21,812 bases of DNA from an uncultured Aquificales bacterium (GTDB lineage Bacteria; Thermosulfidibacterota; Thermosulfidibacteria; Thermosulfidibacterales; Thermosulfidibacteraceae). The position numbers and the translations under genes were made by a program. Under the pieces are notes generated by a model. It ran no database searches, had not been told where the DNA came from, and worked only from the letters and a program-made list of their open reading frames with translations. The stretch covers positions 1 through 21,812 of the forward strand of contig CAYVOC010000023.1 of the NCBI GenBank assembly GCA_964453345.1. The letters run 5' to 3'. This document shows positions 1 to 20,608 of this stretch, in pieces. The stretch's first letter is position 1, and the number at the start of each line of letters is the position of its first letter.

Positions 1-21
1 GCCGGCCCGCAGGGGGCCGGC
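1..21 (-). terminator. GC-rich hairpin, probable intrinsic terminator of the CoA-transferase operon
   Basis: Perfect 8-bp stem GCCGGCCC (1-8) / GGGCCGGC (14-21) with a 5-nt loop, 21 nt downstream of the last operon stop codon (43). The U-tract would lie just outside the window and cannot be verified. Confidence 0.6.
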
Positions 22-42
22 AGATAAAACCACCACAAAAAC

Positions 43-576
43 TTACGGCGGGACATAGTCGATGTGGAAGTCAAGTTTCATCTTATCATCAGGCCACCAC
101 TTGCGCTGCTTCATCTCTCCAGGATAGACCTCTATCTCCTCATAGACGGGCACCTTCTTGATTTCCTTCACAGCCTCCATGCGCTCTATGTCCTCCTGGG
201 TGAGGGCTTCAGCGGAATGATCCACCGTCTCTTCCTTGTAACCCTTGAGTCTTTTGATCTTCTGAATCTCAAACTCGATGAAATGGAACTCTGTAAGCTT
301 GAACTTTACTATTGCTGACCCAGGAACCACCACCGCATACCCCGACTCCTTGGCCGTGGGCCACTCAACGTAAAGGTTGGGTTCATCGGTCTTCTCGCCG
401 TTGTAGTTATACACTGCAAGGAGCTTACCGCAGACAACATCGCCCGGCTTCACCTGATATTCCTCGTATAGCTCCTTCGGCAGATACCACCAGAGGGCCC
501 TGAAGCCCGTCTTCACGTATCCTCTAACCAGCATGGGGTCAAATCCACACAAAATCACTCTGCACCTTTCAGGCAT
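43..576 (-). CDS. Hypothetical protein (177 aa), possible tandem AbrB/MraZ-like cradle-loop barrel
   Basis: Start moved from 645 to the ATG at 576 (MPERCRV...), which has GGAGG upstream and lies 2 nt after the previous stop. LPKELYEEYQVKPGDVV resembles the AbrB-type IPKxxRxxLGIKPGDxV motif; weaker second copy VVVPGSAIVKFKLTEFHFIEFEI. Confidence 0.75.
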   Translation of the reverse strand: MPERCRVILCGFDPMLVRGYVKTGFRALWWYLPKELYEEYQVKPGDVVCGKLLAVYNYNGEKTDEPNLYVEWPTAKESGYAVVVPGSAIVKFKLTEFHFIEFEIQKIKRLKGYKEETVDHSAEALTQEDIERMEAVKEIKKVPVYEEIEVYPGEMKQRKWWPDDKMKLDFHIDYVPP

Positions 577-578
577 CT

Positions 579-920
579 CTAACCTCCCGAAGATTCTTCT
601 ATTTTTCTTATGTAGTCCCCCAGCTCCTCCACCTGCTGCGCACAAAAGTTCATAAACTCGTCATACTCTTCATGGGTGATGAATCCACACATCACCATTC
701 TCCAGATGTAGGGGGAGGCGAACTCCCTCACGTCCATCCACAGCTCTTCACAGAGGAACTCGCCTCCCCCGAGCTCATTCGCCTGCCGCATGTAGGATTT
801 TTTCCATTCAACAATCATCATCTTTACATCCGCCAGCTCCTTCAGCACCCGCTCCTTAGGAATCTGGGGGACTTTGCCCAGCACAAAGGCCGGTTCCCTA
901 CTTCTTGGATTCATAGGCAT
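579..920 (-). CDS. Hypothetical acidic, predicted helical protein (113 aa)
   Basis: AAGGAG 5 nt before the ATG at 920; overlaps the upstream gene by 23 nt; fills the operon gap exactly. No family recognised. Confidence 0.7.
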   Translation of the reverse strand: MPMNPRSREPAFVLGKVPQIPKERVLKELADVKMMIVEWKKSYMRQANELGGGEFLCEELWMDVREFASPYIWRMVMCGFITHEEYDEFMNFCAQQVEELGDYIRKIEESSGG

Positions 921-1134
921 AACACTCCTTTATCACGTATTTTTCGGGAACCACCCAGTAGAAGGGCCAGTGTATCTTCTTGCAGTAGCCTATAATATCC
1001 GCCGGGGGAAAGCTTGAACCCTTAAGCACGGGTTTGAAGTATTTGCACCCCCAGCATATGTGATCGGTTTTCTTCTCAGGCTCAAGTATTGAATCCAAAA
1101 ACTCAACCGGTGTCATTTCTCTCTTATCTACCAT
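898..1134 (-). CDS. Small 4-Cys protein (78 aa), putative [4Fe-4S]/metal-binding, BssC-like spacing
   Basis: GGGAGG RBS; C-x2-C-x20-C-x19-C with CWGCKYF...GYC...FYW...CYAY pattern. Confidence 0.7.
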   Translation of the reverse strand: MVDKREMTPVEFLDSILEPEKKTDHICWGCKYFKPVLKGSSFPPADIIGYCKKIHWPFYWVVPEKYVIKECYAYESKK

Positions 1135-1145
1135 CTCATCCCTCC

Positions 1146-1613
1146 CTACCAGTCCTTAACCTCTCCTTTTTTCTTCTTCTCAAGGAACTCCTGCCAGACC
1201 TCAGGGGACAGCTTCTCTATGTCCCACTTGAATCCGTGAGAGCCGGCGATACCGGCAGAGGGCGGCTGAGGCGCCCATGCCCTCATAGGGTATCCACGGA
1301 TGCTGAACTTCCTGTGATCGGCCCTGCCCAAATAGATCTCCCTGGGCAGACAGTTGTAGGGCCTGGTTTTTCCGGGAGTGCCCGGAAGTATCTTCTCATA
1401 CCCCTGGTTTGGCTTGTCCGCATAAAGGGGCAGTATATCAGGCTCCTCCCCGGGTCTCTCCTCGGGTCCCCTATACATGTGCCCCTGGATCATGTGTATG
1501 TAGTAAACCGTGCCGCATCCGGCACACTTTATCTTCCCCTCCCAGTTCCAGAAGTTGAAGGGATCAAGGTAATTAACGGTATCGCACTTTTTGCACCAGA
1601 TGATATCACACAT
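1146..1613 (-). CDS. Zn-ribbon-like protein (155 aa) with a Pro/Gly-rich C-terminal region
   Basis: Perfect TAAGGAGGT SD overlapping the upstream stop; N-terminal CKKC...CAGC (C-x2-C-x19-C-x2-C). Confidence 0.8.
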   Translation of the reverse strand: MCDIIWCKKCDTVNYLDPFNFWNWEGKIKCAGCGTVYYIHMIQGHMYRGPEERPGEEPDILPLYADKPNQGYEKILPGTPGKTRPYNCLPREIYLGRADHRKFSIRGYPMRAWAPQPPSAGIAGSHGFKWDIEKLSPEVWQEFLEKKKKGEVKDW

Positions 1614-1626
1614 CTTTCACACCTCC

Positions 1627-3039
1627 TTAAATGAGTCCCTTCTTATACCACTCTTCTATCTGGCTGATGGGGTATCCAAGCATCTCGTGGTATATCTTCA
1701 CATTGTCGGCTCCCACGGGCCTGAAGTCCCAGTATTTACGTCTGGGCGTTTTGGAAAGCAGACCGCAGGAATAGGTGGACTGAACCAGCTGATCACCGAA
1801 GATGGGATCGAACTGCCACCTTATTGTTCCCCTCTCCCTGTAATGGGGGCTTTCATAGACCTCCTTGTCGTTGTAAACGGGCATGGCAAGCAATCCAGCC
1901 TCGGTCAGTATCTTTACAACCTCGGATCTGGACTTGTCCGCCGCCCACTTCTCAAGGGCATCGTAGATCTCAACCTGAGCCTCGGCCTCAACCCTGTCCT
2001 TAAACTTCTGATACTTCTTCCAGAGATCCTCCCTCTTTATCACCTTGCACAGCTCTTTGAAGTCGTCATCCTGGAAGGCGCTCACCATAACATACCTTGC
2101 CTCGTCCCTGAGCTGGGGATTCTTTGCGTCGGGATAGTCGGATTTACCGCAGATGATTATGCCATGGACACAGAGCTGGGTATCCCAGTTGCCCCAGCGC
2201 TGCCTGACAATTCCAAACCTACCGTAGAGGGGAACACCGTATCCGAGACACCTGGTCGCACACTGGACCTGGGAGAACTCTATCATGGTGCCAAGCCCGG
2301 TCTTGCGCCTCCAGTATAGGGCCGCCAAGATGGCAACGGTGATCATGGTTCCGGAATACCAGTCTATACACCAGTTGGTGTGCTTAACCGGGTGTCCCCC
2401 AAAGTCCTCGTGGAAACCGGTGACCGATGCAAGTCCAGCATGGGCCTGTCCAAGTATGTCATAGGAGCCACCGAACACCTTGGGACCGTATCCAAAACCA
2501 CCACCCCAAACGTAGATGAACCTGGGGTTTATCTCCTGCAAATACCTATAGGACTGTTTCCACCTGTCGAAGGTTCCGGGTCTGTAACACTCGGTGAGAC
2601 CATCGCTCATGCGCACGAGCCTGTAGAAGACCTCCTTCATCTCCTCCCTGTGGTAGTCCATGGTGATGAAATACTCGTTAACATTACAGTTGATACAGCC
2701 TATACCCTGTCCGGTCATGGGACGTTCATCGTGCAGGGGATAGTAGTAACACTCATTGAAGGGAGAGGTGTGCTTCATGGGATCGCCCATTCTGGGCATC
2801 TCAATCTTCACCACCTCAGCCCCGAGCTCCGCCAGGTTAGAAACAGCATGGGGAGTGAAAACATACATGGTGCAGCTCATCCACCTGACACCCTTCAGAG
2901 CCACGGGCTTCTCAAACTCGTTTCCGGGATCAAACACCTTCTTGCAATACTCCTCGAAGGGCACCTTGTTGGCGTCAAGCTCCTCTTTAGACTTGGGTCC
3001 GGGCTGCTCTTCAATTGGTATTCTTTCCTTCTCCAACAT
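1627..3039 (-). CDS. Family III CoA-transferase (CaiB/BaiF/Frc superfamily), paralog B
   Basis: ALKGVR...[12 protein letters not shown]...[32 protein letters not shown], catalytic-position Asp in [19 protein letters not shown] at 3039 overlaps the upstream TGA (TGATG); GTG at 3042 is an alternative start. Confidence 0.9.
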
Positions 3040-4520
3040 CACACTACCCCCTTCTCTTTAAGTTCTCTAAGTTTGAGCTGATCTATTCCAAGATACTTCA
3101 TGAATATCTCCTCATTATCCTTGCCCAAGGGCCTTCCGAGCCACTTGACCCTTGCAGGCGTCCTCATCTGGAAGGAATTGGGGCTTGTGGCGTAGAGTAT
3201 GGTTCCATAGTGCTCATCCTCAATGGGATAAACCCAGGGTCTATACTTGAAGTGCGGGAACTCACAGGTCTCATCAATGTAGAGAAGCGGTCCAGCAGCG
3301 ATGTCATACTCAAGCAGCTTCTGCTCAGCCTCAATTCTGTTAACATTCCTCAGCCACCTGGTGGTGAGGGTGTAGGTTTTAACCAGGGCCTCAAGGGCGT
3401 TTCTCGCAGCCATCTCTTTGAGCTGGGGATCCTCGGTTATGAGCCTGCCGAACTCCGGATCGTCCCTTTCAATGCACATGCAGATCCTATACCAGAGCCT
3501 GTCGGTCTGACCTCCGATCATCATGTAGCCGTCCTTACAGGGGTTCCAGGCATACTGGTTGAGGTTGGGATCCCAGGATCCGGTTCTGGCCTTGATGGAG
3601 GCGTTGAAACCATACCAGGTGATGTCAAAGTCCAGAATGTCCAGCAAAGCCTCGGCAGCGGTCACCTCTATAAACTGCCCTTCACCGCTTATCTCATCCC
3701 TCCAGTAAAGGGCAGCCAAAGCGTTGACCGCAGCCTGCTCTCCAGCCACATAGTCGGCAAGCCACACACCCGATCTTGTGGGATCTCCACCCTTGCCCCT
3801 GGGCATCAGATCGGGCGGATAGCCGGTGTTGTGGACGAAGGAACAGGCACACTGCGCAAAGGGATCAAGCATCCACTGACCAAATTTTGAAACCCTGTCC
3901 TTCCAGGGTCCCCACTGACCAACCTGCCCTATCCAGACATAGATCAATTTGGGATTGAGCTGGGAAAGCTGCCTGTAGCCAATTCCCCTCTCATCGGTCC
4001 AGCCCGGAGGATACCCCTCGAAGATAATGTCAACGTTCTTGGCCAGCTTCTTGTAAAGCTCCCTTCCCTCCTCCGTCTCAAGATTCAGGGTTATGGAGTA
4101 TTTGTTCCTCATCTCGTGGATGAATTCCAAACCACATTTCTCTCCGGTGTAGCGATCCTCGACCATATACTCTTCCCTGCCGAAGGGGGTGAGCTTCCTC
4201 AGGGGATCTCCCTCTGGCGGTTCAACCTTGATAACTTCGGCGCCAAGCTCGGCCAAAAGGGATGCGGCAAACATGTGACTCAGACGCCACAACCCCACCT
4301 CAAGAACCCTGACCCCCTGAAGAGCTTCAGGCTTGCTCCAGGCCTTCTCAAACTTCAGATTCTCCTCACACCACTTGCCAAACTCCTCCGCCTTCCTCTT
4401 CGCATAGACCTTCATAACCTCCTCTTCGGAAGGCGGTGGCGTGATGGGCCAGGGGCGCTCCTCATACGAGGTGAGCTTCATGGCATCTTCACGACTTTTG
4501 ATCACTACCTCCTTAGCCAT
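3039..4520 (-). CDS. Family III CoA-transferase (CaiB/BaiF/Frc superfamily), paralog A
   Basis: ALQGVRVLE...[37 protein letters not shown], catalytic-position Asp in [22 protein letters not shown]. Start moved to the ATG at 4520 (MAKEVV), which has GGGAGG upstream. Confidence 0.93.
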
Positions 4521-4603: not shown

Positions 4604-4632
4604 GAGATAGCAAAACTAACCATGGTTGTCAA
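4604..4632 (-). promoter_or_regulatory. Putative sigma70 promoter of the CoA-transferase operon
   Basis: Minus strand TTGACA (4632-4627), 17 bp, TATCTC preceded by TG (extended -10); AT-rich tract upstream; AACCATGGTT palindrome (4618-4627) in the spacer. The -10 lacks the conserved final T. Confidence 0.5.
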
Positions 4633-4845: not shown

Positions 4846-5406
4846 ATGACCATAGAGGAAGTTCTATCAGGGTTTCCTAAAAGGATCACCCTTAAAAATG
4901 GGAAAAGGGCACTTATAAAGCCTCTTGAGAGATCAGATTATGAAGGACTCCTCAACTTCTTCCTGAGGGATGTGAAGGAGGAAGACGTTGTCTTTCTCAA
5001 GGACAACGTCAAGGACCCCAGCACCATAAGGGCGTGGTGCGAGAACATAAACTACGAGAGGGTCTTTCCCATAGTGGCAGTCGTTGACAACACCATCGTG
5101 GGCAATGCTTCTCTACACATGCGGGACTTTGGCTGGGCAAGATACCTCGGCAAGATAAGGGTCACGGTTTCGGTAAACTTCAGAAAAATGGGACTGGGGA
5201 AGGCCATGGTGAAGACCCTTGAAGAGGTGGCAACGGGCCTTTTGCTGGAAAGGTTATGGGCGGAGGTGGTTGAAGGAGCACAGGCAGCTGGAGCAAAACT
5301 ATTTCTGGATTTGGGGTATCAGAAAGCTGGGACCCTGAAAAGCATTGTCAAGGCCCCTGACGGTGCCCTTTACGATCTCGGCATATACATCAAGAGGATT
5401 GCTTAA
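4846..5406 (+). CDS. GNAT-family N-acetyltransferase, Pat-like stand-alone domain
   Basis: [15 protein letters not shown]...L..FF N-terminus typical of Pat-type GNAT domains; acetyl-CoA motif FRKMGLG; purine-rich RBS. Confidence 0.88.
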
Positions 5407-15285: not shown

Positions 15286-16620
15286 ATGCTCAAGCTGCTC
15301 AGCATAGCAGGATCGGATCCCTCCGGCGGCGCCGGTATACAGATGGACTTAAAGGTCTTCTCCTCTTTGGGCGCCTACGGCATGGCCATCCCCACCAGCC
15401 TGACCGTTCAGAACACAAGGGGAGTTTATGAGGTAGTTGCCCTTGAGGCAGGGCTGATTTTGGAACAGCTGAAGGCGGTGTTAGACGATGTTGCTCCCCA
15501 TGGAATAAAGATAGGCATGCTGGGAAGAACCGAAATCGCAAGAGAACTGGCCTCCGCTCTAAAGGAATTTTCAGGTCCCATCGTTTTCGATCCTGTGATA
15601 AGGGCCACCACGGGAGGAAAACTGACAGAAGGGGATCTCCAAAACCTGCTCTCCCTCATGAGGATAAGCGCCGCCATAACCCCCAATAGATGGGAACTTG
15701 AAGCCATAACGGGCAAAAGAGGGGTGAGAGAAGCTGTGGATTTTCTGAGGGAGCACGGCGTCACAGGATGCGTGGTGGTAACAGGCGGAGACACCGAGGG
15801 AGAAGAAGCCGAAGATCTGGTAATATGCCCCGGGCTGGAGACGACCCTCTCATCCCCAAAAATAGAGGTTTCACAGGGCACCCATGGAACGGGATGCGCC
15901 TTCTCAAGCGCCCTGCTCTTCTATCTCTGCCAGCTAAAAGACCCCATTGAGGCCTGCCGCAGGGCGAAGGAGTTCATAACCTGCGCCATAAAATATGCGG
16001 TTCCCGTCGGAGAAGGTGTAATTCCGGTAAGACCCGAAGCCAACACAGAGGCAAACGCCCGGAAATTTGTGGTGCTTGAGAGGCTTAAAAAGGCCTACGA
16101 AAGACTAAGGGGAATAAAGAACATCCACAGACTTATTCCTGAAGTCCAGAGCAACTTGGCGGAGGCCATAGAGGGGGCGAAGGGCACAGAGGATGTGGCG
16201 GGCTTTCCGGGAAGGATAGTTAGATTCAAAAGGGAAGTAATAGCACCCGGATGCCCAGAGTTCGGTGCGTCAAGCCATGTGGCCAGAATAGTGCTCACCG
16301 CCATGAGGTTCAATCCGGAATACAGAGCCTGCATGAACATAAAATACAAAGCAGAATGGATAAAAAAGCTTCAGGATGCGGGTTTCTCCGTAAGCCACTT
16401 CAGCAGACAGGAAGAACCCCGGCACATAAAGGAGAGAGAGGGCAGCACCCTGGACTGGGGCACGGAGGTGGCAATAAAAAGGGCCGGCAGGGTCCCTGAC
16501 ATCATCTACGATGAAGGCGATGTGGGCAAGGAACCCATGATAAGGGTTCTGGGCAAAGACAGCTTGGATGTGGTGGAAAAGATAGAGAAGATCTCGCAAG
16601 TCCTACAGGAAGAAGGATAG
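15286..16620 (+). CDS. thiDN: Bifunctional HMP/HMP-P kinase ThiD fused to ThiN-type thiamine-phosphate synthase
   Basis: ThiD: IAGSDPSGGAGIQ.DLK, TVQNT.GV, KIGML, DPV, TPN..E, THGTGCAFSSAL. ThiN: LIPEVQSN, GRIV, PEFGASSHVAR, MNIKY, D.GDVGKEPMIRVLG. Confidence 0.93.
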   Translation: MLKLLSIAGSDPSGGAGIQMDLKVFSSLGAYGMAIPTSLTVQNTRGVYEVVALEAGLILEQLKAVLDDVAPHGIKIGMLGRTEIARELASALKEFSGPIVFDPVIRATTGGKLTEGDLQNLLSLMRISAAITPNRWELEAITGKRGVREAVDFLREHGVTGCVVVTGGDTEGEEAEDLVICPGLETTLSSPKIEVSQGTHGTGCAFSSALLFYLCQLKDPIEACRRAKEFITCAIKYAVPVGEGVIPVRPEANTEANARKFVVLERLKKAYERLRGIKNIHRLIPEVQSNLAEAIEGAKGTEDVAGFPGRIVRFKREVIAPGCPEFGASSHVARIVLTAMRFNPEYRACMNIKYKAEWIKKLQDAGFSVSHFSRQEEPRHIKEREGSTLDWGTEVAIKRAGRVPDIIYDEGDVGKEPMIRVLGKDSLDVVEKIEKISQVLQEEG

Positions 16621-18240
16621 ACCCCACAGAGCAAGGGCACCCAGCAGAAATACAACCGGCAGAACGGGATACCCCTTGACCCAGCCAACCCTGAATCCCC
16701 AGCAGAAGAGAGCCGCCAGAAAGATCCCTATCCCCGTGGTTGAAACAACGAGTCTGTTGCCCAGCTTCCTCAGCTCCCTGTCCCTTATCTCATCCTGCAG
16801 GACCCGAACCCTCACCCCCTCCTCCCTGATCCTCAGGGCCGCCTCCGTCGCAAGGTTTGAAAACACAACAAGATTATCCCTCAACTGCAAAAGCTCTTTA
16901 TAGATCTTCGCCGCCTCCTCCTTCACCTGCCTCCAGTCAAATCCCCCTGCCACAAACTCGGAAGCGTATGGGGAGACTATATCTATGACACTTACCCCCC
17001 TGCACAGCTGCTTGACGGTCCCATCCACTATGAGCATGGCCCTTGCAAGCATCAAAAACTCCACCGGGAACCTGACGCCATACCTCATAGAAATCCCCAC
17101 AATCTTCTGAACTATCTCGCCCACATTTATCCTTTCAAGGGACTGGGAAAGATAGGGATCCACAAGCCCCATAAGCTCAAGTTTGAAGCGTCTCTCATCC
17201 ATGCGCTCAACAAGCCCCATCCTCTTGTAGGCATCAACTATGGCGTCGTAGTCCCTTCTCACTATCGCAACAAAGACTCTCTTCACGAACTCCCTCATAT
17301 CCCTGTCGAGGAATCCCACCATTCCAAAATCGATCAGGTATAAATTTCCATCCTTCCCGATAATCACATTGGCCGGATGGGGATCCGCATGAAAGACTCC
17401 CCCCTCAAGCACCTGCCTCAAAAAGGCCACCGCAAGTCTTTGAGCCATCTCGCATGCCTCATCCGTGGAAAGATCGGCATCCTCAAGGTTTTTGCCCTCC
17501 ACATAATCCATAACCAGAACCCTCTTTGTAGTGAGATCCCAGTGAACCTCCGGAACCCTGACCCCTTCCTCCAAAAGCACAGACCCTATGCGCTCCAGAT
17601 TGGCCGCCTCCACCCTGAAGTCCATCTCCCTCCTTATAGTGAAGGCGAACTCGTCCACCAGCCGCGGGAAATCGTATATCCTCAGCTCCTCAAAGTGTCT
17701 GTGAAGGATATTGGCTATCCTTGAAAGAACCGCCAGATCAAGGTCCACCACCTCTTCTATGCCCGGTCTTCTCACCTTCAGAACCACCTTTCTGCCGTCG
17801 GCAAGCGTCGCCCTGTGGACCTGCGCTATGGACGCAGAACCAACCGGAACAGGATCAACCTCCACGAACAGAGATTCCCACTCCTCTCCAAACTCCTCCT
17901 CCAGAATCCTCTGAACCTCGGGCCAGGGGGAAGGGGGCACCTCATCCCTCAACTTCATCAGCTCGGAAATCCACTCCTCAGGCAGAATATCCGCCCGGGT
18001 GCTGAGAACCTGCCCCAGCTTCACAAAGGTAGGGCCAAGGCTTTCAAGCGCCCTCCTGAAGCGGACCTGGGGAGGATCGGAGGGCACCTTTTTGCCCCAG
18101 ATCCACCTCTTGAGAAGATACCAGGGGGTTCTGGGCAGAACAAAGACCTCTATCCCGTAAGCGAGGAAGGTGTTTATTACCTGCCTCAGGCGCCTTGCTT
18201 CCCTGTATCTCGACACGATTCGGAAGATGGGGACTCCCAT
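16603..18240 (-). CDS. UbiB/ABC1 family atypical kinase-like protein
   Basis: LGPTFVKLGQVLSTRAD, SASIAQVHRA, KVRRPGI, E.DFR.EA.N, FHADPHPAN, IDFGMVG; two C-terminal TM helices. Confidence 0.93.
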   Translation of the reverse strand: MGVPIFRIVSRYREARRLRQVINTFLAYGIEVFVLPRTPWYLLKRWIWGKKVPSDPPQVRFRRALESLGPTFVKLGQVLSTRADILPEEWISELMKLRDEVPPSPWPEVQRILEEEFGEEWESLFVEVDPVPVGSASIAQVHRATLADGRKVVLKVRRPGIEEVVDLDLAVLSRIANILHRHFEELRIYDFPRLVDEFAFTIRREMDFRVEAANLERIGSVLLEEGVRVPEVHWDLTTKRVLVMDYVEGKNLEDADLSTDEACEMAQRLAVAFLRQVLEGGVFHADPHPANVIIGKDGNLYLIDFGMVGFLDRDMREFVKRVFVAIVRRDYDAIVDAYKRMGLVERMDERRFKLELMGLVDPYLSQSLERINVGEIVQKIVGISMRYGVRFPVEFLMLARAMLIVDGTVKQLCRGVSVIDIVSPYASEFVAGGFDWRQVKEEAAKIYKELLQLRDNLVVFSNLATEAALRIREEGVRVRVLQDEIRDRELRKLGNRLVVSTTGIGIFLAALFCWGFRVGWVKGYPVLPVVFLLGALALWGLSFFL

Positions 18241-20156
18241 CTCGTATATCTCACCAGAAACTGGGCAAGATGCAGAACCTCAACCCTCAAACCAGCCTTC
18301 GCAAAACCGTCCTTCAACTGCAGAAGGCAGCTGGGACATGTGGTTACAACCACATCCGGCCCCAGATCCCTCACCATCTCCACCTTTTTCTCAAGGATAT
18401 CTCTTGAGACATCGGGCTTTTTATACCTGTAAAGCCCCGCCCCGCCGCAGCACTCGCTCTCCCTATCGTCCCTCAACAACTCCACCCCCCTGATGGATCC
18501 CACCAGCCCCTCGAGAAACCTCTGTTTGGATGTAGCAATGAGATGGCAGGGAATGTGGAGGGCAACCTTAACGGGACGCACAGCCTCAAAAACCACCCCT
18601 CGATCGAGCAGCCACTCCGCAAGGCTGTATATGCGCAGCGACACCCCGAGGTCCTCCTCATACTCGGCAAAGGCGGACATGCAGGTATCGCACACAAATA
18701 CCACGGGCCTGCCCTCATACCTTTGCGCATTGGCAAGGGCTAAGCGGAAATACTCGGCCCTGTCCCCGTAAACCCTGGCCGGAAGCCCGCAGCACAGCTC
18801 CCTGTCCAGGGAAGCCTTAGTCCCGGAGGATTCAAGCAGATCAAGGGCGCACACGCCTATATCCGGCAACATCTGATCAATAAGACACCCAAGATACAGG
18901 TGGACATCCCCCTCCCTCTTTCCCCTTTCGGCAACAACGGGGGATCTGTTCTCAAACCTGCCCACAACCTTCGCCGCCTCGGAAAGCGGAAGCAGTATCC
19001 TATCCCTCTTTGAAACCACCTTCGGTCCCACCCTTTCAATAAGGTCCCTTCTATCCGCCCTTGCCCTCACCTCCTCCACAAGACGCGAAATGGGTATTTC
19101 AACGGGACAGACCTCCTCGCACCTCTTGCACCCGGTGCACCATCTCGCAACCCGGTAGGCGGCTTCCACCCCCTCGGTTATTGCAGTCCAAGCAACCCCT
19201 ATCCCTCCCATGTAAACCCTGCTGAACCTGAGTCCGCTGACCACCCTATACACGGGGCACACATTCATGCACGCCCCACAGCGGATGCATCTGAGAGCGT
19301 GGGACATAACCGGATCCGAAAGGGCCTTCTTCCTGCCGTTGTTAAGAACAACAACCACCCACCTTCTGTCATCCCGCCACCTGAAGGGACCCCTGAAGAT
19401 GCTCACATAGCTGGAAAACCTCAAGCCCACCGAGTTTCTCGGAAGCACTCTCAGTATCCACAGGGCATCGGACATGCCCTCAACGATCTTCTCATACCCC
19501 ACAAGGGTCACATACAGGGGAGGAACGGTTGCACAAAGCCTGCCATTTCCCTCGTTGGTCATCAGATAAAAGGCGGCGGGATCGGCAGAAACGACGTTGA
19601 TACCGGTGAATCCCGCCTGGGCGCCGAGGAACCTCTCCCTGAGATCGGCCCTGACCAGCTTGGTTATCACAAAGGGATCGGGGGGAACCTCTCTATCAAA
19701 GTATCTGGAGAAAAGCTCCGCCACCTCCTCCTTGGTGTTGTGGACCGCAGGAACAATGAGGTGAGACGGCTTCTCCCCCTTAAGCTGGATTATCCTCTCC
19801 CCCAGATCCGTCTCAACAACCTCTATGCCCCTGACCTCCAGGTAGGGATTGATCCCTATCTCTTCGCTGGTTATGGATTTGCCCTTGACGAGAAGCCTGA
19901 CCCCTCTTTCCTCAAGCAAACGGTATATAAATCGCCTTGCGTCCTCAGCCGTTTCCGCCTCGAAGAACTCCACATCCTTCTTCGAAAGCTCCTCATAAAC
20001 CCTGAACCACAGGGATTGCGCATTCTCCAGCGCCCTCTCCTTAATCGTTCTGGTTCTGGCTCTTATCTCGGCAAAATCCCCCAGCTCGGCAAGGGTTTTT
20101 CTTCTGCCCTCCGCAAACCTGAAGGTAGCCCTCTCAAGAGCCTCCTTTACGCTCAT
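18186..20156 (-). CDS. LutB/LldF (LUD + 2x[4Fe-4S]) fused to two CCG domains (LutA/LldE-like); LldH-like lactate dehydrogenase subunit
   Basis: KGKS..SEEI, ETDLGE.IIQL....PSH...PA.H, TNEGNGR, CIRCGACMNVCP, CTGCKRCEEVCPVEI, then GC...CCG...CDTC and PCH...CCGGAG...CPSC. Confidence 0.9.
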   Translation of the reverse strand: MSVKEALERATFRFAEGRRKTLAELGDFAEIRARTRTIKERALENAQSLWFRVYEELSKKDVEFFEAETAEDARRFIYRLLEERGVRLLVKGKSITSEEIGINPYLEVRGIEVVETDLGERIIQLKGEKPSHLIVPAVHNTKEEVAELFSRYFDREVPPDPFVITKLVRADLRERFLGAQAGFTGINVVSADPAAFYLMTNEGNGRLCATVPPLYVTLVGYEKIVEGMSDALWILRVLPRNSVGLRFSSYVSIFRGPFRWRDDRRWVVVVLNNGRKKALSDPVMSHALRCIRCGACMNVCPVYRVVSGLRFSRVYMGGIGVAWTAITEGVEAAYRVARWCTGCKRCEEVCPVEIPISRLVEEVRARADRRDLIERVGPKVVSKRDRILLPLSEAAKVVGRFENRSPVVAERGKREGDVHLYLGCLIDQMLPDIGVCALDLLESSGTKASLDRELCCGLPARVYGDRAEYFRLALANAQRYEGRPVVFVCDTCMSAFAEYEEDLGVSLRIYSLAEWLLDRGVVFEAVRPVKVALHIPCHLIATSKQRFLEGLVGSIRGVELLRDDRESECCGGAGLYRYKKPDVSRDILEKKVEMVRDLGPDVVVTTCPSCLLQLKDGFAKAGLRVEVLHLAQFLVRYTRWESPSSESCRDTGKQGA

Positions 20157-20608
20157 CTTCCCTCCAGAACCAGTATGAGCCTGCCGGGCCCGTGAACCCC
20201 GGACACATGGATAAGCTCTATATCACCGGTTTTGCTGGGTCCGGTAACAACAGATATGTAATCCCCCTTTATACCGGAGAGGGCCTCATCTAAGGTATCG
20301 TAGATCCTCCTTCTGCTTAAAAGGGCCACATGCACCTCGGGAAGGGTGATGAGCTTAAACCCCTCCTCCTCCGCATAGGCAAACACCAAACTTCCGGTTT
20401 CGGCCACACCGGCCTTCGCCCTGGTTATGGAGACCTTGGCCTGCTCCGGAGCCGACAGGGGAAGATTGAACCTTGCAAGGCGCCTCTTCAGAGAGGCTTC
20501 TACGGCAAAGGGACCATCGGGGAAAAGATCAACAACCTCCGACAGTCCGTCAAGAACCTCTCCCCCCGCGTCCACAAAATTCTTCAAAAAGAGCTCGACC
20601 CTGTCCAC
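20153..20608 (-). CDS. LutC/LldG-like LUD-domain protein
   Basis: GVAETGSLV, LPEVHVALL, VTGPSKTGDIE...V.GVHGP; GTG start directly after the PII stop; ATGA overlap with the next gene. Confidence 0.9.
   Translation of the reverse strand: MDRVELFLKNFVDAGGEVLDGLSEVVDLFPDGPFAVEASLKRRLARFNLPLSAPEQAKVSITRAKAGVAETGSLVFAYAEEEGFKLITLPEVHVALLSRRRIYDTLDEALSGIKGDYISVVTGPSKTGDIELIHVSGVHGPGRLILVLEGR

Follow-up and report, generated by a model that had tools for sequence, protein, structure and literature searches.

Why should two adjacent, diverged genes for family III CoA-transferases be kept together with four genes for small proteins that belong to no named family? This question is raised by a six-gene cassette (g1 to g6, positions 43-4520, minus strand) in the stretch of 21,812 nucleotides (nt) analysed here (the window), taken from contig CAYVOC010000023.1 of assembly GCA_964453345.1, a source genome of 1.5 Mb in 64 contigs that is 99.9% complete. 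The answer that we favour, and consider probable, is that the six genes together specify a single CoA-transferase of family III, built from several subunits, which transfers CoA between a common acyl-CoA and a small carboxylic acid. The enzyme is thus of a known kind, and what is new, as far as our searches reach, is the set of undescribed small subunits kept with the transferase pair. This answer is based on the PF02515 matches and aligned Asp residues of the two transferases, the synteny and tight packing of the six genes, the conservation of g3 and its predicted interface, the existence of a distant sister cassette, the near-universal presence of g3 in the phylum of the source organism, and neighbouring genes related to acyl-CoAs and small acids. 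The genes of the cassette are as follows.

3039..4520, minus strand: g1, CoA-transferase subunit A, 493 amino acids (aa), with a conserved ~65-aa N-terminal extension (PF02515, 250 bits)
1627..3042, minus strand: g2, CoA-transferase subunit B, 471 aa, with a GTG start at 3042 and an alternative ATG at 3039 (PF02515, 228 bits)
1146..1613, minus strand: g3, a zinc-ribbon protein of 155 aa whose extended tail is rich in Pro, Gly and Arg (cross-phyla alignment)
898..1134, minus strand: g4, a 78-aa protein with invariant Cys/His residues, a presumed metal site (alignment)
579..920, minus strand: g5, a 113-aa poorly conserved protein (alignment)
43..576, minus strand: g6, a 177-aa predicted small beta-barrel protein (alignment and AlphaFold 2 [AF2] model)

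The close packing of these genes was recognised in a preliminary description of this DNA, which had them overlapping or lying at most 13 nt apart, and the measured distances from g1 to g6 are -4, 13, 11, -23 and 2 nt (negative values denote overlaps). The GTG start of g2 overlaps the g1 stop by 4 nt, and the largest overlap is that of the g5 start with g4, at 23 nt. Purine-rich sites resembling Shine-Dalgarno sequences (GGGAGG, AGGAGG, AAGGAG), which had also been claimed, are indeed read 5-8 nt upstream of every start. The products of all six genes are conserved in dozens of distant genomes, so the genes are protein-coding beyond chance.

The g1 and g2 products match PF02515 over profile positions 1-365 of 366, with 250.4 and 228.1 bits against a gathering cut-off of 23.3 bits, and are adjacent, diverged paralogues that share ~29% identity. 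This bears out the earlier assignment of two divergent family III CoA-transferases, and Pfam and NCBIfam likewise recognised none of the dehydrogenases, hydratases, thiolases, ligases or transporters that the unit had been said to lack. Family III CoA-transferases are homo- or hetero-dimers of two interlocked subunits, and they follow a ping-pong mechanism via aspartyl intermediates. Asp256 of g1 and Asp227 of g2 align with the catalytic Asp of solved formyl-CoA transferases, which we take to be Asp169 in the O. formigenes enzyme Frc. When the window's cassette (type 1) and the sister cassette described below (type 2) are compared, all 56 type-2 rows and 67 of the 68 type-1 rows of subunit B have Asp227; the exception, B_T1_L040, is a wrongly assigned A gene that comes from a truncated contig. 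Asp256 of subunit A is kept in 69 of 76 type-1 rows (Ser in the other seven) and in 50 of 52 type-2 rows (Glu in the other two), so that it is replaced in 9 of 128 overall. The Ser-type A subunits, with the motif WLPSYV, are found in loci L024, L025, L057, L065, L071, L074 and L075, where B keeps its Asp, and the Glu-type ones in type-2 loci L161 and L162. B is the subunit whose catalytic Asp is never lost, and the loss of this residue from A in some lineages suggests that A is probably a structural or second-site partner.

Profile searches of the PDB returned formyl-CoA transferases as the best matches (10uh, 1p5h, 1pt5; E 2.6e-30), together with the chains of BbsEF (9fn0; E 1.1e-21 and 4.3e-13 for g1, 4.7e-21 for g2) and, among the matches of g1, alpha-methylacyl-CoA racemase. 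All NCBIfam equivalogs considered (Frc, CaiB, succinyl-CoA:mesaconate, succinate-glutarate and CoA:oxalate transferases) scored below their curated cut-offs: the best equivalog score was 137.6 bits against a cut-off of 700 for g1 and 133.8 against 442 for g2, the rest being lower, and the Frc models gave 120-134 bits against cut-offs of 442-504 (for example, 120.5 against 504). Both proteins also carry conserved N-terminal extensions and loop insertions, and these are placed against g3 in the model presented below.

The source genome encodes nine PF02515 proteins, including g1 and g2. Four of the genes lie in tandem on contig C2 (72269-77772), directly downstream of a gene of the HpaB family, which includes 4-hydroxybutyryl-CoA dehydratase, and near a metallo-beta-lactamase (MBL) gene; two lie on C34 (158-2779), where genes for a 4HBT thioesterase and an SBF transporter are close by; and the last is on C4 (5260-6336). 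Those on C2 and C34 form A-like/B-like pairs without g3-g6, and they fall outside the cassette clades of the tree described below.

To follow the cassette across genomes, one genome per species was scanned with g1, 231 stretches were found to encode relatives, and 80 of these loci were kept. The six proteins were searched by tblastn against the kept loci, and synteny was counted in the 62 of them that extend 4.7 kb or more from the start of g1. Whether the small genes stay with the transferase pair in other genomes was a question posed by the preliminary description, and they do: B, g3 and g4 follow A in order in all 62 loci, g6 is in order in 60, g5 is detected in 57, and all six are in order in 56. 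In these 56 syntenic loci the g1 orthologues are 66-92% identical, and outside the nearest relatives the median identities are 72% for g1, 76% for g2, 74% for g3, 67% for g4, 34% for g5 and 48% for g6.

The type-1 cassette spans at least six phylum-level labels, Archaea included. Its carriers are labelled as Aquificota/Aquificales, Thermosulfidibacter, Chloroflexota/Anaerolineae, Terriglobia (Acidobacteriota), Firmicutes (Ammonifex, Desulfovirgula), Thermodesulfobacteriota (Syntrophobacterales, Desulfacinum, Desulfosoma, Desulfobacca, Thermodesulfatator) and Archaeoglobales. One g1 protein from the Archaeoglobales counts bacterial sequences among the named relatives closest to it (Desulfovirgula, 75%) and nests within bacterial ones in the tree, a placement which suggests that the cassette may have passed between the domains Bacteria and Archaea. 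Within the window's own GTDB phylum, the Thermosulfidibacterota, the g3 profile found a match in 16 of the 18 genomes, including all 10 that are of high quality; the two genomes without a match are 71% and 88% complete. The cassette is a core feature of this phylum, whose genomes measure 1.2-2.0 Mb, and its near-universality in a chemolithoautotrophic group with small genomes argues for a central rather than a peripheral role.

The four small proteins gave few leads in database searches. None of g3-g6 matched a Pfam or NCBIfam family above cut-off, PDB profile searches with each of them gave nothing better than E 0.025, and the ESM Atlas returned only unnamed clusters for g3 and g6. No paralogues of g3-g6 were found in their own genome beyond a single weak zinc-ribbon match on contig C29 (E 0.003). 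The database names of all six cassette proteins are generic or 'hypothetical', and every g3 homologue is named 'hypothetical'. The alignment of g3 has more to say. Its ribbon Cys residues (C7, C10, C30 and C33) are followed by ~115 residues that are rich in Pro, Gly and Arg and contain many invariant positions; its mean column identity in the cross-phyla alignment is 72%, and homologues are 66-88% identical across phyla. The g3 protein is conserved as much as the transferases themselves, and the pattern of its tail would suit a chain that runs along the surface of a partner.

A complex of this sort was predicted from g1 (residues 62-493), g2 (44-471) and g3 (1-140), each with its alignment and with g3 as the scored partner. 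The preliminary description had advised looking for interactions among the encoded proteins, and in the resulting model g3 is predicted to contact both transferases: its scores against A plus B were 0.76, 0.81 and 0.75, and the best of three controls reached 0.21. Of 80 solved complexes, 58 reach the score mark used, as against 2 of 110 mismatched pairs. This calibration is only roughly valid for a three-chain job with custom alignments, and the model supports binding and does not show it. The predicted local distance difference test (pLDDT) value of the partner is 73 or higher, and 70% or more of the contacts are shared between the runs.

In this computed interface, residues 86-124 of g3 and parts of its ribbon would meet residues 234-239, 302-312 and 356-391 of g1 and residues 93-106, 217, 307-314 and 409-419 of g2. 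The invariant residues placed there are G96, R106, R111, Q116 and P117 of g3; W302, Y303, S308, I309 and K310 of g1; and S93-E97, Y99, P102 and D105 of g2. The 93-106 loop of g2 is an insertion relative to the solved formyl-CoA transferase. Because g3 is without a relative in the PDB, the predicted interface is not a recall of a like complex.

The age of the association between g3 and the transferases can be gauged from more distant relatives. A g3 profile run against 1.84 billion representative proteins gave only 57 matches, among them a distant g3-like group of 125-140 aa that has the same ribbon and the NYLDPxxFWN motif. Type-2 loci were found in 195 species, of which 80 were kept (L100-L179), and their carriers are mainly Deferrimicrobia, Methylomirabilota, Rokubacteria and Acidobacteriota. 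Gene order at these loci is that of type 1, with an A-like (44-51%), a B-like (44-54%) and a g3-like gene followed by a gene for a g4-like protein of 62-72 aa with a CxxC...C...C pattern (hhalign E 0.002, a weak match to g4, with identical Cys spacing). A gene for a 124-aa protein comes next in 76 loci and is in some of them fused to that for the g4-like protein; this 124-aa protein has no similarity to g6. An AMP-forming acyl-CoA ligase gene follows in 63 loci.

In a quick maximum-likelihood tree of the A and B proteins of both types, all A proteins form one clade and all B proteins another (Shimodaira-Hasegawa-like approximate likelihood ratio test, 100 each), and types 1 and 2 are sisters within each. 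Read together with the gene order, this tree indicates that the A/B duplication and the association with g3 predate the split between the two types, and the association with g4 probably does as well. The g5 and g6 genes, and the MBL hydrolase gene described below, are specific to type 1.

Several other features recur around the type-2 cassette. Further co-directional genes, often present upstream of it, encode proteins of ~130 aa, ~450-520 aa and 68 aa that are without a Pfam or PDB match, the conserved ~520-aa protein among them. Pairs of peptidase-U32-family genes lie near 40 type-2 loci, IclR regulators are found in Methylomirabilota, and the g4-like protein of this last group has a long N-terminal tail rich in Lys, Ala and Pro.

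The remaining small proteins differ from one another in how well they are conserved. In g4, H25, C27, C30, C51 and C71 are invariant and H55 is nearly so; the preliminary description had called this an Fe-S-like protein with four Cys, and the four invariant Cys stand, joined by a His, whereas the Fe-S assignment found no support and the fold could not be predicted. The g5 protein has a mean column identity of 37%, with W39 invariant and C93 nearly so. The g6 protein has an invariant N-terminal motif (R6, V7, C10, G11, D13 and P14), and its AF2 model is a small beta-barrel whose fold resembles 2glw (Z 7.9, root-mean-square deviation 2.9, 90 residues aligned) and 2d9r (Z 6.7), both structural-genomics proteins of unknown function. 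These Z values lie in the range that the tool calls 'common', so no function is drawn from them, and Foldseek gave no match for g6 at E<=0.001.

Some details of g5 and g6 vary between loci. Residues ~115-150 of g6 are an acidic insert of ~35 residues in the window and in loci L001-L003, L009 and L015, and it is absent from the ~140-aa orthologues of other phyla. Two g5 orthologue frames (L016:10683-11027 and L021:5069-5407) read MPMNP, a stop and then a continuation, so that the start in these two loci probably lies after the upstream stop; the extended N-terminus of g5 in the window and in L009 is not universal.

The genes around the cassette offer hints on its substrate. Flanking open reading frames were clustered over the kept loci and scanned with Pfam and NCBIfam. 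A protein with an MBL fold and TPR repeats is encoded directly after g6 in 52 loci, where it forms a seventh gene that the preliminary description does not mention, and its MBL domain is closest to the glyoxalase II thioester hydrolases, at a score far below cut-off. The source genome has a homologue of this gene on contig C18, between ruvC and phosphate-transport genes, with 49% identity to the Thermosulfidibacter copy. A PAS/sigma-54 activator gene lies upstream of the cassette in 30 loci, and a divergent GNAT gene is found upstream of it in the window as well as in 11 related loci. Genes more directly related to acyl-CoA chemistry include a 4HBT acyl-CoA thioesterase in nine loci, an AMP-forming ligase in four type-1 loci (one with an acetyl-CoA-synthetase N-domain) and an acetate-uptake transporter (NF038013, above cut-off) in three. 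Together with the GNAT gene, these neighbours are a weak hint that the substrate may be a small carboxylic acid with its CoA ester.

From these observations we infer the following roles for the subunits, together with a mechanism and a class of substrate. The ancient paralogues A and B would make up the core, an arrangement shared with other family III enzymes of two genes, with B as the obligate catalytic subunit, its Asp227 forming the acyl-aspartyl anhydride and CoA-thioester intermediates of a ping-pong mechanism, and with A, in which Asp256 is kept here, acting as a structural or second-site partner. The g3 protein may anchor itself via its zinc ribbon and lay its invariant tail across both subunits on family-specific loops, and would thereby act as a clamp that fixes the A/B pairing. 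The g4 protein could be a Cys4/His metal-binding mini-protein of the same ancient core, with g5 and g6 as lineage-specific accessory subunits, and the MBL-fold hydrolase would complete the module in most relatives. It is possible to go further and to picture a holoenzyme decorated with metallo-proteins in which only B is catalytic, A is a scaffold, and g3 and g4 gate or extend the chemistry of a central, near-indispensable step of anaerobic carbon metabolism, a proposal that we regard as tentative and on balance unlikely. If it were true, g3 and g4 might, for example, link the transfer of CoA with a further reaction of a small, unstable acyl-CoA, and the retention of the cassette in every high-quality genome of the phylum and its exchange between Bacteria and Archaea would be explained.

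Several points weigh against a single six-subunit transferase. Binding was scored for g3 alone, with the N-termini of the transferases trimmed and g3 cut at residue 140; the metal site and the partner of g4 are assumptions, given its poor AF2 model (pLDDT 48); g5 has 27-47% identity and was not detected in 5 of the 62 loci; two archaeal loci have g5 and/or g6 out of order, with g6 elsewhere in the locus; and the type-2 cassette has the unrelated 124-aa protein in place of g5 and g6, which may therefore not be core subunits. The MBL+TPR gene of the source genome is not adjacent to the cassette, neighbours vary widely between loci, and each hint of a substrate comes from few loci. Moreover, literature and database searches turned up no biochemical, proteomic or RNA evidence for the cassette, and orthology is not established to any gene studied in print. 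One possible candidate is the acyl-CoA transferase pair AF0973-AF0974 of A. fulgidus, which is induced on H2/CO2 according to the accessible part of Hocking et al. (2014; PMC3949148); no protein of the A. fulgidus type strain is among the 120 homologues listed.

Some of these points could also be accommodated if g4, g5 and g6, and possibly g3, were co-transcribed helpers of the same pathway: assembly factors or regulators, for instance, or a protein that binds the substrate or serves as a carrier. The restriction of the interaction support to g3, the poor conservation of g5 and the absence of g5 and g6 from the type-2 cassette would all agree with this, as would the confident folding of g6 by itself (pLDDT 92.8), which is what an independent protein would do. 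Nevertheless, none of the 62 loci lacks g4, and the distant cassette has it too, in some cases fused with the small protein that comes next; g4 does not fold alone, as expected of a protein that needs a partner or a metal, and the genes are tightly packed, with overlapping g4 and g5 frames. On this evidence helpers of this kind seem unlikely.

A different proposal, the new chemistry suggested in the preliminary description, is that the CoA-transferase fold serves racemase or epimerase, intramolecular transferase or transferase-lyase chemistry here, with the metal-binding subunits supplying a catalytic or redox centre. Family III holds such enzymes, DddD and Mct being examples, and the racemase found among the PDB matches belongs in this context. 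The four extra subunits, one of them with invariant Cys4/His, are not needed by characterised family III transferases, both transferases score far below every NCBIfam equivalog cut-off, and A tolerates the loss of its Asp. On the other hand, the catalytic Asp of B is invariant, as a transferase mechanism expects, and both subunits keep their Asp in the window. In addition, searches of g3-g6 with Pfam, NCBIfam and PDB profiles revealed no signature of a redox domain or of a flavin or Fe-S family, and the Cys residues of g3 form a classic zinc-ribbon pattern, which is usually structural, so we judge other chemistry to be quite improbable. Membership of a described pathway (BbsEF, Frc, CaiB or the 'Magic' benzene-activation cluster) is very improbable indeed, since, for all that the nearest named relatives are the 9fn0 chains (E 1e-21 and 4.7e-21) and formyl-CoA transferase (E 2.6e-30), every equivalog score is far below cut-off and the window is without bbs beta-oxidation genes, oxalyl-CoA decarboxylase and carnitine genes.

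Signals for transcription of the cassette were also sought in the window, and the features that flank the six genes are as follows.

1..51, minus strand: two hairpins past the g6 stop; the first, at 51-30, precedes a T-run, and the second, GC-rich, occupies 21-1, where the contig ends (folding)
4604..4632, minus strand: promoter candidate TTGACA-17-TATCTC, with TTGACA at 4632-4627 (read from the sequence; absent from the scanner list)
4846..5406, plus strand: divergent GNAT acetyltransferase gene (PF00583), a recurrent neighbour of the cassette

The hairpin that the preliminary description placed at 1-21 folds as claimed, and a second one with a T-run (51-30), unmentioned there, directly follows the g6 stop; folding of this segment gave a minimum free energy of -26.2 kcal/mol (z -2.97). 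The 6 terminator-like sites found in the region are no enrichment over shuffled sequences (4.9 expected). Position 1 of the window is the end of the contig (C23), so the DNA 3' of g6 lies outside the assembled sequence for this genome. The sigma-70 promoter proposed at about 4604-4632 stays a mere candidate: TTGACA-17-TATCTC is visible there, but the scanner did not pick it up, and the 4 promoter-like sites found in the region are what chance would give (4.2 expected). No sigma-54 -24/-12 motif lies upstream of g1 in the window; control by sigma-54 was considered across loci and set aside, the motif being found within 250 nt of g1 in 4 of 72 loci and in 2 of 72 reverse-complement controls.

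Elsewhere in the window, two adjacent LUD-domain genes lie beside a P-II gene (18186-20608, minus strand), and the larger LUD protein (656 aa) joins a LUD domain, a 4Fe-4S dicluster and two CCG cysteine-rich domains, which makes it LutB/LutC-like and fused with an Hdr-like module. A gene at 15286-16620 (plus strand) encodes a 444-aa fusion of ThiD (phosphomethylpyrimidine kinase) and ThiN (thiamine-phosphate synthase).

The type-1 module is present in ~230 species genomes, and the sister cassette in ~195 more, among sulfate reducers, syntrophs, Archaeoglobi and a vent-dwelling phylum, so the cassette probably marks an unrecognised reaction of anaerobic acyl-CoA metabolism. Assigning its substrate would fill a gap in the metabolic models of many uncultured anaerobes, and the cassette would exemplify the recruitment of small metal-binding subunits to a classical enzyme fold.

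How, then, does this cassette compare with systems that are already known? Full-text literature searches found no paper that describes it, which, with the NCBIfam equivalog results, agrees with the preliminary description, which did not recognise it as a described pathway. The Gaia paper (PMC12180486), judged by its accessible part, is unrelated to the cassette. A closer resemblance is offered by the 'Magic' cluster of 'Ca. Anaerobenzenivorax', in which, according to the accessible part of Toth et al. (2026; PMC13101534), a highly expressed, uncharacterised pair of type III CoA-transferase genes is followed by one for a hypothetical protein, and which has relatives in metagenome-assembled genomes from hydrothermal vents. 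As described there, that cluster occurs in benzene degraders only, and at its centre are a GlcDEF-like flavoprotein/Fe-S trio, MaoC dehydratases and an AMP ligase. None of these domains occurs in or beside the cassette in the window, and the cassette is found in hundreds of species; the two are set apart by gene content. Frc/oxalate, CaiB, BbsEF and the 'Magic' benzene cluster were all excluded as identities of the cassette on gene content and NCBIfam cut-offs.

Among characterised enzymes, Frc and YfdW (10uh, 1p5h, 1pt5) are the most similar in sequence in the PDB and have the aligned catalytic Asp. Unlike Frc, which is a homodimer without accessory proteins, the cassette misses the NCBIfam Frc cut-offs, and the window contains no oxalyl-CoA decarboxylase gene. 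BbsEF, the succinyl-CoA:(R)-benzylsuccinate CoA-transferase (9fn0), is like the g1/g2 pair in consisting of two adjacent, diverged PF02515 paralogues, and g1 and g2 are likewise presumed to form a hetero-oligomer; SmtAB and the phthalate enzyme are further two-gene transferases of family III. In contrast to BbsEF, to which their similarity is remote, g1 and g2 have the conserved extensions and insertions noted above, and neither the six genes nor the rest of the 21.8-kb window includes the dehydrogenases, hydratase and thiolase of the bbs operon. We know of no small Zn- or Cys-rich subunits described for BbsEF, and literature searches found none; nor, to our knowledge, has any characterised family III transferase been described with extra subunits.

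The closest parallel to g3 comes from other CoA-ester enzymes, which are held by zinc-ribbon scaffolds of the DUF35 type; examples are BbsA with the thiolase BbsB and the archaeal complex of thiolase and HMG-CoA synthase. The g3 protein is, judged by its sequence, not a member of the DUF35/ChsH2 family: it has only a faint match to the zf-ChsH2 ribbon (14.9 bits against a cut-off of 23.2, E 0.023) and none to OB_ChsH2, lacks an OB-fold, carries a ~115-residue tail, and has CoA-transferases rather than thiolases as its predicted partners. By analogy, however, g3 resembles these scaffolds in being a small zinc ribbon that is predicted to hold CoA-ester enzymes together.

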